The translations under genes were made by a program, and so were the position numbers. A stretch of DNA of 5,037 bases, taken from positions 1-5,037 of the IMG/VR virus record IMGVR_UViG_2563366883_000001; one strand, 5' to 3'. The notes under the pieces are model-generated. The model saw only the letters and a program-made list of their open reading frames with translations, did no database searches and was not told where the DNA came from. Shown here piece by piece: positions 1 to 5,037 of the stretch. The DNA is from a virus (Duplodnaviria > Heunggongvirae > Uroviricota > Caudoviricetes). Numbering within the stretch: position 1 is the stretch's first letter; every line of letters begins with the position of its first letter.

Positions 1-65
1 ACGAACGCCGGAAGGCAGCTGGTTTTATTTGAGTCTGAGAAACGATTTTGTCGGAGGAAATTTTA

Positions 66-782
66 ATGGAAACCGTATTTGACGCACTGAAAGCACTGAA
101 AAGAGCCTCTTCACAGGTAGTGGCGGCCCGCCTTGGAATCAGCCGTGAAGATGCGGTCAACGAACTGTGGAAACTGAAGCGCCGCGGTGAAGCGGATAAC
201 AAGGGTTCGATGTGGTGGCTGATTCAGGCTGGTGAAAGTGAACCGGTGTCACCGGTACCGAAAGTGACAGCGCAAATGCTGACTGAGGCGATTGAACAAC
301 ATGGCCCACAAACGGCGGATGAGCTGGCACTGATGTTCGGGATTACCTCCCGCCGGGCGAATTCATCGCTGGCCATGGCAATCAGCAAAGGGCGTCTGAT
401 TCGCGTGAATCAGGGTGGTAAATTTCGTTACTGCATACCGGGCGCTGATTTACCGGCAGAGCCGGAAGCTGCATCCGTAGCGGAAACCGATGGTAAAGCC
501 TTTCCTCAGCCAGCAGGTGTTGCGTTACCAGTACAGGAAATGATGGCACAGGAAGAAATGAAAACAGAAATCGTGGAAGACATTGTGAGGTTACAGCCAT
601 CGATCACCGAAATGAAAGCAGATGACCTGATTCTACCATCGCTGCATGTGGCTAACCGCGAGCTGCGCCGGGCGAAAAGTGATGTCCAGAAGTGGGAGCG
701 AGTCTGTGCTGCGCTGCGGGAACTGAACAAACACAGGGATATTCTCCGGGATATTACCGCCACCAGAGAGCAGCAGCGGTGA
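66..782 (+). CDS. Hypothetical phage protein with two winged-helix-like segments and a charged, coiled-coil-like C-terminus
   Basis: ORF-track frame 48..782. I place the start at ATG 66 because GGAGG at 53-57 sits 8 nt upstream; the TTG at 48 has no SD. Two similar segments (aa ~8-45 and ~76-120) each read like a small wHTH (e.g. [15 protein letters not shown] and [19 protein letters not shown]). Stop TGA 780-782 overlaps the next GTG start. Family not recognised. Confidence 0.6.
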
Positions 783-1096
783 GTGGCTGGAAGAAGTGGC
801 GCTGGGCTGAAATCCTGATACTCCGGCAGTGTGCGGGAACGATGAGAGTCGAAAGCATCGGTTATCTGATTGGTCGTAGTGAGTCAGCCGTCAGGACGAA
901 AGCGCGGGAACTGGGTATCAGCATGATTTTACGGGGTGATTTTCACCCGTCGGCAAAATATTCACAGCGTGATATTGAGCTGGCGCGGCAACTGCATCAG
1001 CGTGGCGTACCCCGACGGGAAATTGCCGAAAAGTTTGGGATGAAGTTGGGCGCAGTGAATAACTACGTTTATTTCGACAGGAGGGTTCAGGAGTGA
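779..1096 (+). CDS. Small HTH DNA-binding protein (GcrA-N-terminal-like / sigma-70 region 4-like pattern)
   Basis: GTG 779 overlaps the upstream stop (GTGA). From this start the protein begins [13 protein letters not shown]...[24 protein letters not shown], which matches the W-x-x-E...I-x-x-x-L-G-x-x-S-x-x-A-V-x-x-K-x-x-x-L-G-[LI]-S pattern I recall from GcrA-type HTH domains. ATG 842 is an alternative start but would cut off the first helix. Weak SD-like AGAGAG at 765-770. Confidence 0.5.
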
Positions 1097-1395
1097 GGGT
1101 GAGGATTTATATCGCCGGTCCGATGACGGGATATGAAAATTTCAACCGCGAGGCGTTTCACAGGGCGGAAGATGCGCTGAAACGGGAAGGGCATACCGTT
1201 TTAAACCCGGCAGTACTTCCGGACGGGCTGACTCAACCACACTACATGGATATTTGCATGGCAATGCTCCGTTGCGTGGATGCGGTTTACATGCTGAAAG
1301 GCTGGCAGCAGTCGGCAGGTGCAAGGGCTGAGCTGGCACTGGCGGAGAAACTGGGCCATGCGGTGATTTTTCAGGAGGTGGGCAGTGAATATTGA
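1093..1395 (+). CDS. DUF4406 family protein (nucleoside 2-deoxyribosyltransferase-like fold)
   Basis: 100 aa with the N-terminal motif RIYIAGPMTG typical of DUF4406 / nucleoside 2-deoxyribosyltransferase-like proteins and an acidic residue in the C-terminal AELALAEKLG segment. GTG 1093 overlaps the upstream TGA; GTG 1099 is an alternative start. Confidence 0.75.
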   Translation: MRVRIYIAGPMTGYENFNREAFHRAEDALKREGHTVLNPAVLPDGLTQPHYMDICMAMLRCVDAVYMLKGWQQSAGARAELALAEKLGHAVIFQEVGSEY

Positions 1396-1624
1396 CCCGG
1401 CGATAACGATTGATATGGCCCTGAACACCGGCCTGGCACTTCTTGGTTATTTCTACATCATGTTCTGCAGCGGACGATGGCTGTCACTGTTGTTCATGAA
1501 AAAATGGAATAAACGCCGTAAGCAGGAGCAACGCCAGAAGGCAATGGATGCATTTTCGAAGCCTTCGGAATTGACGGCATGGAACCAGGGGATCCAGCTC
1601 GCGCAATCAGCAGAGGGGGTGTAG
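1385..1624 (+). CDS. Small membrane protein (one predicted TM helix, basic C-terminal tail)
   Basis: GTG 1385 preceded by AGGAGG at 1373-1378 (6-nt spacer). Hydrophobic stretch LNTGLALLGYFYIMFCSGRWLSLLF followed by a Lys/Arg-rich segment KKWNKRRKQEQRQK. Overlaps the upstream stop by 11 nt. Confidence 0.5.
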   Translation: MNIDPAITIDMALNTGLALLGYFYIMFCSGRWLSLLFMKKWNKRRKQEQRQKAMDAFSKPSELTAWNQGIQLAQSAEGV

Positions 1625-1654
1625 TAATCCTTGTATATCGGAGTGAAGAGAAAA

Positions 1655-1969
1655 ATGACGATCACAAAACAACGAGTAGAAAAAATCATATATCGCCATG
1701 AAATGGGACTGAACAGCGATGTCACTGCCGAAGAGGTTTATGACCTGGCTGTACTGGCGCTGAATTTATCAAATATCGCAAACCTGAAGCGATACGAGCT
1801 TGATATGGATGGTTGCGACTCGTGCGGTCAGGATTGTGGCGCAGATATGACTGAAGATCCTGATGGTGATTATGTCCTGTTTGATGACGTGGTTAAGTTG
1901 TTTGAATTTGATACAACCACTCAAAAGTTAGAAATCCCGGCAAAGGAGGCAGCCAGTGAGCAAGATTGA
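1655..1969 (+). CDS. Hypothetical acidic phage protein
   Basis: ORF-track frame 1631..1969. ATG 1655 chosen as start (purine-rich GAAGAG just upstream); the TTG 1631 and GTG 1643 alternatives are not excluded. C-terminal half is Asp/Glu-rich with a CDSCGQDCG cysteine cluster. Its 3' end overlaps the next gene's GTG start. Confidence 0.55.
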   Translation: MTITKQRVEKIIYRHEMGLNSDVTAEEVYDLAVLALNLSNIANLKRYELDMDGCDSCGQDCGADMTEDPDGDYVLFDDVVKLFEFDTTTQKLEIPAKEAASEQD

Positions 1970-2504
1970 CTATCAGGCACTGCGTGAAAAGGCAGAGAAA
2001 GCAACTAAAGGAAGCTACATCGTAGGGCATACATCTGTTAACCAGCACGGCAATTTAACAGGAGTTTTTGTTTGCCAAAAATGGAAAGGAGAACCCGGTG
2101 GCGTGATTGCGGAATGTCATATTAACTGCCTGATTGAAACAGATGCTCAGGCTTATGCAAACGCTGAATTCATAGCAGAGGCTAACCCGGCTACCGTGCT
2201 GGCACTGCTGGATGAACGGGAAAGAAACCTGCAATACATCAAAAGCCGCGATCAGGAGAACGAGGATATTGCGCTAACGGTAGGGAAGCTGCGCGTTGAG
2301 CTTGAAGCAGAAAAACAGCGGGCAAAAGTTCTATTTATGGAAAATGCTCGGCTTAAGTCAGGCATAGCCGGTCTGATACACCTCGGTATTCGATATGCAG
2401 ATGTTGAGGTCATGAAAATTGCTGGAGATGCCCAGCTTTCTACCCCATGCACTGACAGCATCATAAACAGCATTGCAACAGGCATTCGCATCAAAGGAGA
2501 GTGA
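1956..2504 (+). CDS. Ead/Ea22-like family protein
   Basis: GTG 1956 with AAGGAGG at 1943-1949 (6-nt spacer). Contains the segment NAEFIAEANPATVLALLDERE plus a coiled-coil-like stretch, which I recognise as typical of Ead/Ea22-like proteins of lambdoid phage early regions. Confidence 0.8.
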   Translation: MSKIDYQALREKAEKATKGSYIVGHTSVNQHGNLTGVFVCQKWKGEPGGVIAECHINCLIETDAQAYANAEFIAEANPATVLALLDERERNLQYIKSRDQENEDIALTVGKLRVELEAEKQRAKVLFMENARLKSGIAGLIHLGIRYADVEVMKIAGDAQLSTPCTDSIINSIATGIRIKGE

Positions 2505-2505
2505 T

Positions 2506-3021
2506 ATGGCGTTAACACACCACGAACTCTGTCAGATTGCGTACAAGTTCCTTAAGCGCAACGGGTTCAAGGTTTGCTTTCATGACCGCTTTGTTGCTGT
2601 AACCAGTACCGGAGAACAGCCAGATGCTATGGGATTCAGAAATTCAGCATCATGCCTGATAGAGGCGAAGTGTTCTCGTGCTGACTTGTTGGCAGATAGA
2701 AAAAAGCGTTTCCGTAAAAATCCCTCACTTGGCATGGGCGACTGGCGATTCTTTATTAGTGAGCCGGAAATTATTTCAGTTGAGGATTTACCTCCCGGCT
2801 GGGGATTACTTCACGTTGTTAACGGAAGAGTACGGAAAGTACATGGATGGCCCAGGGGTAATTGCTGTTGGGGTAATCCTGACGATAAGCCATTTACTGG
2901 GAATAAGCAGGTTGAATGCGATTACATGTTATCTGCATTAAGGCGCATGGAGTTGAGAGGGCACCTTAATGAAATATATGACGGTGTGATTGTTAATAAG
3001 AAAGAAGGAAACGCGGCATGA
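2506..3021 (+). CDS. PD-(D/E)xK-motif putative nuclease (possibly MmcB-like)
   Basis: ATG 2506 with AAGGAG at 2494-2499; the ATG at 2473 lacks an SD. Motif GEQPDAMGF ... CLIEAKCSRADLL fits E...PD...(D/E)xK of restriction-endonuclease-fold nucleases. Stop overlaps the next ATG (ATGA). Confidence 0.7.
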   Translation: MALTHHELCQIAYKFLKRNGFKVCFHDRFVAVTSTGEQPDAMGFRNSASCLIEAKCSRADLLADRKKRFRKNPSLGMGDWRFFISEPEIISVEDLPPGWGLLHVVNGRVRKVHGWPRGNCCWGNPDDKPFTGNKQVECDYMLSALRRMELRGHLNEIYDGVIVNKKEGNAA

Positions 3022-3926
3022 TCACTATTACCAAAGGGCGACTGCTGACAATCAAGCAGTGGCGCGAAACATACGGACCGGGTAGCAACGTTGTACTGCC
3101 AGCAGAAGAAGCGGAAGAACTGGCACGAATTGCACTGGTATCGCTGGAAGCAGAGCCGGTGGCAAAGATTATAGCTCATTACCCATTAGGAGTTGACGTA
3201 GGCAAACAAAAGTTCGTACAGGCCATTGGAGAGCTTCCTGACTTTGGCGGATATCTATTTGCCGCCCCGCCAGCGCCGGTAGTGCCGGAAGAAGCAACTC
3301 CGGAAAACGTAGAAATGCTCTCTGGCTATGTTTCCACGTACAAATTAACCGATAGCGAGCGCGATATTGCTGCCGAAATATGGAACGCCTGCCGCACCGA
3401 CATGCTTCAGTCCGGAAACTTTCGGGAAAGCAAGAATTCGTCAACCAATAATTTTCGGGAAATCCCGGAAGCGTCAACCAGCTCTCCGGTAACTCCGGCT
3501 CTTCTGCCTGGTGGTTTCACCATTGAGGAGGCGAAGGAATTACATGAAGACCTGGTACGCAGCCACATAAGCAAGGCCTTAAGTGGCGAAAAGATGAAAA
3601 AGAAAGATCGCGATGCTGATTTGCGCTGGATTCATGGCGTTATAGTTCAGGCAGCGTGGTTTGTAAAAGCATCACTGGAGCAGAATGCACTATCGGGCAA
3701 CTCTCCGGTAACTCCGGATGGTTGGATAAGCTGTAGTGAGCGAATGCCGGATGATGGTCAGCACGTAATTATTTTATGTGATGGCGCATTCGTTCTTTAT
3801 GCGCAATATCGAGACGGTGAGTTTTTTGATGTAGTCCGTAATGGTGATGAATTTTTCGAAACACAGAGCCGCAATGTAACCGACTGGATGCCGTTACCAG
3901 AACCGCCGCAGGAGGTGCGCCAATGA
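3018..3926 (+). CDS. DUF551 domain-containing mosaic phage protein
   Basis: C-terminus DGWISCSERMPDDGQHVIILCDGAFVLYAQYRDGEFFD...VTDWMPLPEPP matches the DUF551 signature (W-x-S...LP...THWMPLPEPP). SD AAGGAA at 3004-3009. Contains two in-frame 17-bp direct repeats, each encoding SPVTP. Confidence 0.8.
   Translation: MITITKGRLLTIKQWRETYGPGSNVVLPAEEAEELARIALVSLEAEPVAKIIAHYPLGVDVGKQKFVQAIGELPDFGGYLFAAPPAPVVPEEATPENVEMLSGYVSTYKLTDSERDIAAEIWNACRTDMLQSGNFRESKNSSTNNFREIPEASTSSPVTPALLPGGFTIEEAKELHEDLVRSHISKALSGEKMKKKDRDADLRWIHGVIVQAAWFVKASLEQNALSGNSPVTPDGWISCSERMPDDGQHVIILCDGAFVLYAQYRDGEFFDVVRNGDEFFETQSRNVTDWMPLPEPPQEVRQ
3482..3717 (+). repeat. Pair of 17-bp direct repeats (ctctccggtaactccgg) inside the DUF551 gene
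   Basis: Exact copies at 3482-3498 and 3701-3717, in the same reading frame, each encoding SPVTP. They flank a ~200-bp segment encoding a charged, helix-like module. Confidence 0.7.
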
Positions 3927-4006
3927 TCTGGCCTGAAGCATTTGCAATTACAGGCGTTGCTATGGCTATCGCTTTTTTAGTATATGTTATTTGTCGGTGT
4001 GGGTAA
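3923..4006 (+). CDS. Predicted 27-aa hydrophobic peptide (MIWPEAFAITGVAMAIAFLVYVICRCG)
   Basis: Not in the ORF track (too short). ATG 3923 overlaps the DUF551 stop (ATGA) and is preceded by GGAGG at 3911-3915 (7-nt spacer). Hand translation gives a single hydrophobic helix, stop TAA 4004-4006. Confidence 0.35.
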   Translation: MIWPEAFAITGVAMAIAFLVYVICRCG

Positions 4007-4041
4007 AAGCGTTCGCCGGGATTAACACCAAAGGAGGGAAT

Positions 4042-4146
4042 GTGTCGGATGATATCTCACTGGCAATGGAAGGTGCGCTGGCTGTTATTGCTGTTGTGGG
4101 TGTTTACTGCCTGGTTGTGTTTTTGATGGATCGACTAGGGAACTGA
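4042..4146 (+). CDS. Predicted 34-aa hydrophobic peptide (MSDDISLAMEGALAVIAVVGVYCLVVFLMDRLGN)
   Basis: Not in the ORF track. GTG 4042 follows AAGGAGGG at 4031-4038 (spacing short, 3-4 nt). Acidic N-terminus, one TM-like helix, charged C-terminus, stop TGA 4144-4146. A 28-aa peptide in another frame (ATG 4040..4126) uses the same SD; the start is ambiguous. Confidence 0.3.
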   Translation: MSDDISLAMEGALAVIAVVGVYCLVVFLMDRLGN

Positions 4147-4154
4147 ATTCATTA

Positions 4155-4176
4155 CGATATGGGAATTCCCATATCG
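4155..4176. repeat. 22-bp perfect palindrome cgatatgggaattcccatatcg centred on GAATTC
   Basis: Every position pairs across the centre at 4165/4166. Lies between the 34-aa small ORF and the predicted hok promoter. No U-tract on either side. Confidence 0.6.
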
Positions 4177-4187
4177 GGTAAAAACGG

Positions 4188-4216
4188 TTTGCGGTAAAGC
4201 GAGAGTTAAGTAGAAT
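4188..4216 (+). promoter_or_regulatory. Putative sigma-70 promoter of the hok/mok mRNA
   Basis: -35 TTGCGG (4189-4194), 16-nt spacer, -10 TAGAAT (4211-4216, 5/6 to consensus). The predicted start site near 4222-4224 coincides with the 5' segment that is complementary to the mRNA 3' end. Confidence 0.45.
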
Positions 4217-4234
4217 TGCTGCGGGTGCTTGAGG

Positions 4235-4270
4235 CTGTCTGCCTCGGGCATGCCACCGTAAGGCAGACAG
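4235..4270 (+). promoter_or_regulatory. hok mRNA leader stem-loop
   Basis: 10-bp perfect stem ctgtctgcct (4235-4244) / aggcagacag (4261-4270) with a 16-nt loop. Lies in the predicted 5' leader upstream of mok. Confidence 0.5.
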
Positions 4271-4277
4271 AGAAAAG

Positions 4278-4343
4278 CCCCAGTTAACATTATGCGTCTT
4301 GCAGGACGCTTAACATTAATCTGAGGCCAATTTCATGCTAGCC
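4278..4343 (-). ncRNA. sok: Predicted Sok-like antisense RNA (approximate bounds)
   Basis: Inferred from the antisense promoter and from the sokC/mokC arrangement I recall. Would be complementary to the mok start codon and SD (4321-4337). The minus strand has a small hairpin (plus coordinates 4294-4309) and a U-rich stretch from plus 4270-4278. Ends not determinable from sequence alone. Confidence 0.35.
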
Positions 4344-4547
4344 ACATGTAGGTTAGCCTCTTACACGCCGAAAGGCAAGGAGAAGCAGGCTATGAAGCAG
4401 CAAAAGGCGATGTTAGTCGCCCTGATCGTCATCTGTATTACCGTCATTGTGACGGCACTGGTAACGAGGAAAGACCTCTGCGAGGTACGAATCCGAACCG
4501 GCCAGACGGAGGTCACTGTCTTCACAGCTTACGAACCTGAGGAGTAA
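4335..4547 (+). CDS. mok: Mok-like regulatory reading frame (in-frame upstream extension of hok)
   Basis: 70-aa ORF from the track, MLATCRLASYTPKGKEKQA followed by the Hok sequence. As I recall, chromosomal Mok proteins such as MokC have this in-frame extended layout. GAGG at 4323-4326 lies 8 nt upstream of ATG 4335. Confidence 0.5.
   Translation: MLATCRLASYTPKGKEKQAMKQQKAMLVALIVICITVIVTALVTRKDLCEVRIRTGQTEVTVFTAYEPEE
4350..4378 (-). promoter_or_regulatory. Putative Sok antisense promoter
   Basis: On the minus strand: -35 TTGCCT (plus coordinates 4378-4373), 17-nt spacer, -10 TAACCT (4355-4350). Placed inside the 5' part of mok, where sok promoters sit in known hok loci. Confidence 0.35.
4392..4547 (+). 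CDS. hok: Hok/Gef family type I toxin, closest to HokD (RelF)
   Basis: 51 aa, MKQQKAMLVALIVICITVIVTALVTRKDLCEVRIRTGQTEVTVFTAYEPEE. From memory this is near-identical to E. coli HokD/RelF and very similar to HokC/Gef. AAGGAG at 4376-4381 lies 10 nt upstream of ATG 4392. Confidence 0.9.
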   Translation: MKQQKAMLVALIVICITVIVTALVTRKDLCEVRIRTGQTEVTVFTAYEPEE

Positions 4548-4615
4548 GAGACCTGGCGGGGGAGAAATCCCTCGCCACCTCTGATGAGTCAGGCATCCTC
4601 AACGCACCCGCACTT

Positions 4616-4642
4616 AACCCGCTTCGGCGGGTTTTGTTTTTT
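4616..4642 (+). terminator. Rho-independent terminator of the hok mRNA
   Basis: Stem aacccgc (4616-4622) / gcgggtt (4627-4633) with UUCG tetraloop (4623-4626), followed by the T-rich run ttttgtttttt through 4642. Confidence 0.8.
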
Positions 4643-4663
4643 CCTGGCATTCTGGTTTACAAT
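4634..4663 (+). promoter_or_regulatory. Possible sigma-70 promoter for the downstream gene
   Basis: -35 TTGTTT (4634-4639), 18-nt spacer, -10 TACAAT (4658-4663). Overlaps the terminator T-tract; weak evidence. Confidence 0.25.
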
Positions 4664-4714
4664 TCGCACGCCAGCCTGAACAACTGGCACCTGCTGCGCC
4701 AGCAGAGACAACCG

Positions 4715-4993
4715 ATGGCGCACGATACCAAATTATACAATTCTGATAATTCAGCCGTCTTTGCCAGCAGGCACGGGCGGCGTTCTCATGCATTCAAATC
4801 TGACAGGTTACAGCACGCCCCATGCACTGAAGAACAGGCCGAATGGCTGATTCAGAACTACCGCAGACGTGGGTATGAGTTTAGGAAAACCCTCAGCCTC
4901 GATTATCGTCACTGGATAATCTCCGTCAGGCTTCCTTACTCTGAACGCCCACCGCGTCCGTCCCGCACATTCCTGCAACGCATCTGGAGGTAA
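4715..4993 (+). CDS. Hypothetical basic protein (92 aa)
   Basis: ORF-track frame 4634..4993. The TTG at 4634 lies inside the terminator T-tract, so I take the first ATG at 4715 as start. Arg-rich, no motif recognised. Sits immediately downstream of hok in the same orientation, as rem does relative to hokD in the K-12 Qin prophage, but I cannot confirm homology. Confidence 0.4.
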   Translation: MAHDTKLYNSDNSAVFASRHGRRSHAFKSDRLQHAPCTEEQAEWLIQNYRRRGYEFRKTLSLDYRHWIISVRLPYSERPPRPSRTFLQRIWR

Positions 4994-4994
4994 C

Positions 4995-5037
4995 GTGCGG
5001 GTATTACTTCGACCTGTTCTGGTACCGGAACTCGGGC
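4995..5037 (+). CDS. 5' fragment of a further ORF running off the window end
   Basis: GTG 4995 preceded by GGAGG at 4986-4990 (4-nt spacer); open to the end of the window (VRVLLRPVLVPELG...). Only 14 codons visible. Confidence 0.25.
   Translation, partial: MRVLLRPVLVPELG

Follow-up and report, generated by a model that had tools for sequence, protein, structure and literature searches.

Short in-frame direct repeats in a lambdoid DUF551 gene as probable copies of a shared linker joint for domain exchange

Background

The IMG/VR virus record IMGVR_UViG_2563366883_000001 begins with a stretch of 5,037 nt (positions 1 to 5,037 of that record, referred to here as the "window") in which a gene for a 302-aa protein with a DUF551 domain carries two exact copies of a 17-nt sequence, both of them encoding the pentapeptide SPVTP and both lying ahead of that domain. 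Are these repeats, which bracket a segment of about 200 bp, the scar of a single event in the history of this one gene, or are they a local sign of something common to a larger family of genes? A preliminary description of the window, made from its sequence alone, took them for a module-insertion or duplication junction of a mosaic phage protein and pointed out that recombination between the two copies would delete the module.

We conclude, with a probability that we would put at roughly 0.8, that the 17-mers are copies of a shared proline-rich linker DNA at which proteins exchange, acquire or lose domains. The preliminary description was essentially right, and its main limit was that a joint found throughout the family was treated as a local scar. 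The case is a well-documented example of the known mosaicism of lambdoid phages and not a new mechanism or system.

The repeat pair and the segment that it brackets

The exact 17-mer CTCTCCGGTAACTCCGG occurs on the + strand of the window at positions 3482-3498 and 3701-3717, the two copies being in the same frame and 219 nt (73 codons) apart. Each copy reads xxC TCT CCG GTA ACT CCG G in the frame of ORF (open reading frame) 3018-3926 and specifies S-P-V-T-P; the match widens to 20 nt with one mismatch (3479-3498 and 3698-3717). This pair is the longest exact direct repeat of the window. Repeats in 200 mononucleotide shuffles did not exceed 14 nt, no second match to the 17-mer appeared in 200 dinucleotide shuffles even when 3 mismatches were allowed, and the analytical expectation for a repeat of this length is 7e-4 pairs. 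The in-frame repeats described earlier are therefore exact at both places and far above chance. Both SPVTP stretches are predicted to be coil, the second one with predicted local distance difference test (pLDDT) scores of 44-56; the AlphaFold 2 (AF2) model of the full-length protein from which such predictions were drawn is weak (mean pLDDT 41) and was used solely for secondary structure and for the beta-sheet of DUF551.

The bracketed segment comprises 68 residues (aa 161-228), of which 29% are charged overall and 49% in the centre, and it is predicted to form two helices, at aa 169-184 and 195-226. When the module was modelled with its own alignment, AlphaFold returned a two-helix hairpin (model residues 14-29 and 40-71) at a mean pLDDT of 83.5, with the trailing SGNSPVTPDGW stretch as low-confidence coil. 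From its charge content and predicted helices, the name "charged helical module" given to it in the preliminary description holds. An exhaustive HMMER search recovered 84 representative clusters that carry the module at either end or in the interior of proteins between 60 and 585 aa long; in many of these relatives it is C-terminal, behind a coiled coil, whereas small proteins of Klebsiella phage e270.1 and Serratia phage Eta consist mostly of this module on its own. The consensus of a 34-sequence alignment (LPGGFSxEEAKELHxxLVxSHISKALSGEKMKxxxRxADLxWIHxVIVxAAWFVxASxEA) begins 2-3 residues past copy 1 and stops a few residues short of copy 2. The bracketed segment is, in short, an autonomous two-helix domain of about 60 aa. 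Its DNA is present in 491 of 5,426 complete E. coli genomes. The module alone gave no match in Pfam, in the PHROG families or among PDB sequences, and a Foldseek search of PDB with the confident module model returned generic helical hairpins only (best E 1.3).

A joint conserved at the level of DNA

The sequence of copy 2 is not peculiar to this gene. Exact copies of the 17-mer were found in at least 119 IMG/VR contigs, and among the matches listed it stands in frame in about 70 or more different contexts and follows more than 25 unrelated upstream sequences. At least six types of module come after it (DUF551, DGWVMVPK..., the PGGF module, DGHIQFSVSL, DDVRRMDWLV and DGSEDTKRLD), and the half joint represented by copy 1 precedes the helical module behind at least seven unrelated upstream sequences. 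The linker recurs in a large family of accessory proteins from lambdoid prophages, many of them in E. coli, so the 17-mer does not have to record a single insertion; the repeats do bracket a module inside the DUF551 gene, as first described, but they are not necessarily a local scar.

A scan for all codon combinations that encode P-V-T-P-D-G-W-I, chosen against a bias in codon choice, showed that 106 of 124 such joints (85%) share an identical 23-mer. Among 107 unique sequences, pairwise identity is 0.91-0.99 within the joint (about -10 to +44) and falls to about 0.30, the random level, on either side. Synonymous codons are fixed within it: GTA in 101/107 cases, ACT in 107/107, the rare ATA in 102/107 and the rare CGA in 95/105. 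A Pro that closes the joint on its 3' side is just as invariant but is written with all four codons, and thus provides an internal control for the effect of constraint on the protein alone. The identity of the joint at the DNA level thus goes beyond the needs of the protein, and the joint is a conserved island of DNA with unrelated flanks on both sides, as is characteristic of a mosaic joint.

For 121 joints, we clustered the 100 nt upstream and the 100 nt downstream at 90% identity. The resulting 46 upstream and 23 downstream clusters occur in 80 combinations that include 22 four-gamete squares, so that partners have been exchanged across the joint; the DUF551 allele of the window is itself found behind seven different upstream clusters. 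The core of the DUF551 domain (3750-3884 in the window) shows an identity of only ~0.3 and falls into 23 clusters at 90% identity among 121 genes, and the distance from the 5' joint to a second conserved island on its 3' side varies from 162 to 213 nt. Further partners appear in individual proteins: P0038 has a different module between the same linkers, P0084/85 have a non-DUF551 domain after the second linker, and two middle modules are chained in P0021 and on a plasmid of strain JS316. Several DUF551 genes are present in many genomes, with up to eight matching places in a single one. The autonomy of the helical domain, its replacement in P0038 and the alternative domain in P0084/85 bear out the view that this is a module junction in a mosaic phage protein.

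The coordinates of these features are collected in Table 1. The layout of the cassette deserves a separate remark, in that a hypervariable DUF551 core lies between two islands, 3696-3749 and 3885-3914, that are near-invariant in nucleotides.

Table 1. Features of the DUF551 gene, in window coordinates
Feature	Position	Strand	Basis or remarks
Intact 302-aa mosaic gene (N-terminal region, NFRE linker, helical module, DUF551)	3018..3926	+	ORF list, Pfam
Low-complexity linker of two tandem 33-bp units, just before copy 1	3417..3480	+	NFRESKNSSTN / NFREIPEASTS, 77% identity (repeat D5)
Repeat copy 1, "half joint" encoding (S)SPVTP, module directly after	3482..3498	+	Corresponds to the 5' portion of the family joint alone
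Helical module, aa 161-228, ALLPGGFTIEE...EQNALSGN	3498..3701	+	HMMER family, alignment, AF2
Full joint GN-SPVTP-DGWISCSERMP, ~54 nt	3696..3749	+	GGC AAC TCT CCG GTA ACT CCG GAT GGT TGG ATA AGC TGT AGT GAG CGA ATG CCG
Repeat copy 2, inside the full joint	3701..3717	+	Exact 17-mer match
DUF551 domain, hypervariable core with conserved ends	3720..3911	+	Pfam; AF2 beta-sheet, pLDDT 60-86
3' conserved island TGGATGCCGTTACCAGAACCGCCGCAGGAG (WMPLPEPPQE), closes the DUF551 cassette	3885..3914	+	Identities of 0.93 and 0.78 in 15-nt windows, ~0.3 in flanks

Alleles without the module

The preliminary description had proposed a check for homologues that lack exactly the segment 3499-3717. Such homologues exist. 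A synthetic junction of 37 nt, built so that a 28-nt seed has to span the junction, was found at 100% identity in 49 of the 5,426 complete E. coli genomes, always within DUF551 genes, and the module-minus proteins read ...IPEASTSSPVTPDGWISCSERMP... across it. Three examples differ in their N-terminal modules and in their DUF551 cores, and all have ...STSSPVTPDGWISCSERMP... at the junction. The deletion junction occurs in at least four gene backgrounds (loci L004, L005, L006 and L125), and fusions of the NFRE linker to DUF551 and of the NFRE linker to the module are both found, each with several variants of the linker.

The closest pair of alleles consists of the module-minus locus L125 from IMG/VR and the module-plus locus L187 from E. 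coli (protein P0101), which differ by exactly 219 bp in a near-identical background (1 mismatch in 417 nt upstream and 4 in ~890 nt downstream), one copy of the repeat being kept and the interval gone in L125. Either direction of change is compatible with this comparison. On sequence grounds a deletion in one step would be the more parsimonious reading of this pair than an insertion; the alternative would be insertion of the module by a double crossover with a donor of the structure linker-module-linker. Natural "before and after" alleles of this kind, which differ by exactly one domain, together with at least 23 types of DUF551 core, amount to a natural series of domain swaps for the study of what these early-expressed proteins do.

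The window's own allele is present in five complete genomes, and no exact module-less derivative of it was found, the closest sequence being 96.6% identical and having an STN-YPVTP joint. A module-less twin with the DUF551 allele of the window (L189; 1 mismatch in 209 nt) occurs in at least 37 genomes. In a search with tblastn of the junction peptide against phages, the rows that we examined were split matches to module-plus proteins.

Two side observations concern the same gene family. E. coli FORC_069 (NZ_CP023061.1) has module-less and module-bearing genes of the DUF551 family in different prophages, at ~2,528,165 and ~2,118,084 respectively, so that donor and recipient forms coexist in one cell. 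A common allele (a cluster of 401 member sequences, seen at L001 1501-2259 and L187 3001-3732; proteins P0019 and P0101) is without the whole DUF551 core and ends in ...SERMPDDRQEVNQ*; it looks like another in-frame internal deletion within this family.

How domains might be exchanged at the joint

Copy 2 is part of the ~54-nt joint that leads into DUF551, and copy 1 is the 5' half of that joint, placed before the module. In the mechanism that we propose, the same nucleotides form the borders of otherwise unrelated modules, so that prophages brought together by co-residence or co-infection could recombine there and reassort the partners on either side, and these ~54 nucleotides would serve both as a flexible peptide linker and as a homology patch for the exchange of domains. 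Exchange at the full joint might depend on RecA or be carried out by phage enzymes of the Red/RecT type. The minimal efficient pairing segment is 31-34 bp for RecA and 23-27 bp for Red-beta (PMC3945230); the ~54-nt joint is longer than either and can therefore support homologous exchange among the DUF551 genes of a genome. Relaxed homologous recombination by the Rad52-like recombinases of phages is known to generate mosaics where homology is short or has diverged (De Paepe et al. 2014, PMC3945230).

The two direct copies, 219 bp apart, might in addition allow the module to be lost in frame or to be gained from a linker-module-linker donor. A homology of 17-20 nt is below the minimal efficient pairing segments, and for this reason RecA-independent slippage or single-strand annealing would be the most plausible routes of intramolecular loss. 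Deletion between short direct repeats in the absence of RecA increases with the length and the proximity of the repeats (PMC5426353). The repeat, the borders of the domains, the exact module-minus alleles, the conservation of the joint in DNA and the exchange of partners across it are direct observations; the enzymes involved, whether the module was gained or lost in this lineage, and what the protein might do are inferred.

Several points weigh against this shared linker as the place where domains are exchanged, acquired or lost. With only 17-20 nt in common, the two copies should be poor substrates for classical homologous recombination. The joint of the module-less twin L189 reads STN-YPVTP and there are ~12 mismatches in the 100 nt upstream of it, from which it follows that the left crossover of that exchange lay further upstream and not within the 17-mer. 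The second linker is YPVTP (CTATCC...) in 77 of 118 close homologues (70 + 7), so that the exact repeat is shorter there and the identity of the repeats has not been kept everywhere. One event, followed by exchange of the flanks, could account for the many contexts in which the deletion junction is found. The junction that a reciprocal tandem duplication would produce is absent from the 5,426 complete E. coli genomes, the single partial match being in a different upstream context on plasmid NZ_CP058619.1. Finally, the support for recombination at the joint is entirely comparative.

Alternative explanations

The observations that have led us to a shared linker DNA as the site of domain exchange can be pushed further, to the proposal that the ~54-nt joint and the 30-nt 3' island are maintained for a recombinogenic role and not merely as passive homology, the DUF551 family of nin/exo-xis accessory genes being a population-level system of cassette exchange. 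We regard this as a tentative and rather unlikely idea. If true, such a system would keep bringing together new combinations of N-terminal modules, of optional middle domains (the helical module being one) and of hypervariable DUF551 cores, and an arms race with targets in the host or in rival phages would be a plausible setting for it. Slightly less likely again is the explanation in which the joint is a dedicated recombination signal, be it the hotspot or recognition site of an enzyme from phage or host or the product of second-order selection for shuffling, and the family a programmed cassette exchange. A signal would fit with the survival of what is in effect a single nucleotide "allele", rare codons included, amid divergence that is otherwise saturated, with the second conserved island that closes the hypervariable core, with the very high combinatorial diversity and with the presence of up to 8 copies per genome. 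There is also a Chi-like octamer, CCTGGTGG, that begins 9 nt after copy 1 (3507-3514, at the start of the module) and is one mismatch from GCTGGTGG. A true Chi site, however, is absent from the whole window, a scan with Rfam gave no match at the joint (its only match being sok at 4223-4397), and no recombinase, reverse transcriptase or nuclease gene adjoins the DUF551 gene in the window or in related loci. No terminator was found at the joint, and promoter matches there are at chance level only. Homogeneity of the joint would be expected simply from recurrent homologous exchange at a linker that the genes have in common.

Constraint on the protein alone would require neither a signal nor recombination: SPVTP might simply be a favoured linker peptide whose codons coincide, in which case the repeat would have no role in recombination. 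Both copies do lie in predicted coil between folded parts, and PVTP-like linkers (YPVTP, SPVIP, PHVTP, SRLIP and YPAIP) recur at the borders of modules, a sign of preference at the level of the peptide. This explanation is nevertheless improbable, given that the GTA, ACT, ATA and CGA codons are fixed beyond need while the Pro at the edge uses four codons, that the mosaic breakpoints match the edges of the island, and that one repeat unit and the module are exactly what is missing from one allele of the near-isogenic pair.

It is very improbable that the repeats are the target-site duplication or footprint of a self-mobile element (a transposon, a homing element or an intein-like element) that inserted into a module-less DUF551 gene. 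The insert is discrete, it is flanked by direct repeats, module-less alleles exist, and annotation of an identical genome treats the segment as a disruption that leaves two partial pseudogenes. Yet the 202-bp in-frame insert encodes just the 60-aa helical domain, and neither a transposase, an endonuclease nor terminal inverted repeats were found in it; moreover, hundreds of genes that never had the module already contain the 17-mer, ahead of other domains, and the module is joined to other partners via the same or variant linkers.

Internal tandem duplication with later divergence of the copies, the other half of the preliminary reading of the junction, is rejected: it has nothing in its favour beyond the repeat itself and the existence of internal duplications with other breakpoints in P0002, P0022 and P0025, and against it are the lack of any similarity past 20 nt (ALLPGGF... 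and DGWISC... are unrelated, and predicted to be helical and beta, respectively), the failure to find a longer diverged repeat and the occurrence of the duplication junction in 0 of 5,426 genomes. With only 17-20 nt shared and that junction absent, the reading as a module junction of a mosaic protein stands and the reading as a duplication does not. The duplications in P0002, P0022 and P0025 (singletons of one contig each) span 72-100 aa at breakpoints other than the 17-mer, and could be real rearrangements or artefacts of assembly.

Comparison with known systems

According to the modular theory of Botstein, lambdoid phages evolve by homologous recombination at short conserved sequences, and comparisons among HK97, HK022 and HK620 reportedly noted conserved boundary or linker sequences. 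The DUF551 joint resembles this mosaicism in being a short conserved island of DNA between unrelated flanks, in the reassortment of partners and in drawing on several prophages per genome as a pool. It differs in that the joint is intragenic and falls in an in-frame linker between domains, so that domains of a protein and not genes are reassorted, and in that this gene has two direct copies of the joint, so that a deletion within one molecule becomes a further route.

Ea22 proteins from the exo-xis region of Shiga toxin (Stx) phages are mosaic, and DUF551 has been called a "portable domain" (PMC10834534, PMC8614690). The likeness to the present case extends to the neighbourhood of accessory genes, to DUF551 itself and to a block-wise mosaicism known at the protein level; a term search of these two reports returned no description of a joint at the nucleotide level, of an SPVTP linker or of exact module-minus alleles. 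In contrast to Ea22, the window protein is without an Ead_Ea22 domain and its gene is in the nin region rather than in exo-xis. The mosaicism of lambdoid accessory genes, the mosaic nature of Ea22, the portability of DUF551 and homology-driven exchange by recombinases are all already published.

The difference between L187 and L125 is exactly that expected of RecA-independent deletion at short repeats, with which the present case shares perfect direct repeats in the range of 11-20 bp, close spacing (219 bp) and the loss of one repeat plus the interval. Unlike the loss-of-function deletions that are scored with reporters, the deletion here is an in-frame fusion of functional-looking domains that persists in nature (49 genomes).

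Shufflons, diversity-generating retroelements and the conversion of pilin cassettes also have conserved brackets around a hypervariable core and alternative cassettes elsewhere in the genome. A shufflon or other site-specific inversion is rejected, since the repeats are direct and not inverted repeats of the sfx type, there is no Rci-type or other recombinase in the window and the neighbouring genes have nin-region functions; the only signal related to a recombinase is a sub-threshold match to HTH_7 in ORF 692-1096. A diversity-generating retroelement is likewise rejected because neither the seven ORFs of the window, compared with Pfam, nor the annotation of a 7.6-kb locus by the Prokaryotic Genome Annotation Pipeline (PGAP) includes a reverse transcriptase, and no second copy of the DUF551 core that might act as a template repeat was found in the 5-kb window. 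Unlike the pilin type of conversion, there is no array of silent cassettes here, the alternatives being located in other complete prophage genes.

The gene and its genomic setting

The 302-aa protein belongs to a cluster of 100% identical proteins (P0001). Its sole Pfam domain is DUF551 (PF04448), which places it in that family with a match at aa 235-298 to the full profile (1-68) at 74.8 bits against a cut-off of 22 (E 1e-20). The Ead_Ea22 domain (PF13935) was not found in this protein by the Pfam scan and is located in a separate ORF, 1956-2504, two genes upstream. Phage PhiR5_1 annotates a homologue of the window protein as Ea22; this label is loose, the domain in question being in the separate ORF.

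Over its entire length the window matches the chromosome of E. coli UCPROB-002 (NZ_CM142927.1, locus L190) with full identity; the DUF551 gene belongs there to a lambdoid prophage and is located in its nin region, not in exo-xis. The order of genes is replication protein P, DUF1627, DUF4406, an Ea22-like gene, a 171-aa hypothetical protein, the DUF551 gene, hokD/sok, DUF968, RusA and Q. The block composed of the Ea22-like gene, the 171-aa hypothetical and the DUF551 gene (1956-3926) is here between P and Q, and close relatives of these three genes adjoin xis-int, in the early-left operon, in phage PhiR5_1 and in the P0101 loci (L001 and L186-L188 compared), from which it follows that the block moves between both early operons.

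On NZ_CM142927.1, PGAP/RefSeq lists two "incomplete" DUF551 pseudogene fragments (L190 3219-3680 and 3894-4127) that correspond to 3018-3479 and 3693-3926 of the window, and the unannotated gap between them is the helical module. PGAP has thereby broken an intact gene in two, apparently as an artefact of alignment to reference proteins that lack the module. The typing of Stx and other prophages is also affected, in that genes of the DUF551/Ea22 region are unreliable markers because their parts have different histories.

The plasmid of strain JS316 (NZ_CP058619.1, L185 ~1070-1900) has a frame in which the helical module is chained to a second middle module (..SGN-SRLIPGEVLSAIREV..) and follows an ..IAETSTN-SPVTP linker, the frame being read to the end of the translated stretch only; PGAP annotates partial pseudogene fragments alone at this locus. 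The NFRE linker, which is predicted coil, varies in length as well: there are two units in 118 of 120 homologues, four in 2 of 120 and one in L006. This variation in the number of units is a second repeat-driven length polymorphism within the same linker. Downstream of the DUF551 gene, the window contains a hok/sok type I toxin-antitoxin locus at 4223-4547, in which the Rfam match to sok (4223-4397) scores 117 bits and a HokD-like ORF is listed at 4335-4547 with 70 aa, the annotated hokD of the identical genome being shorter.

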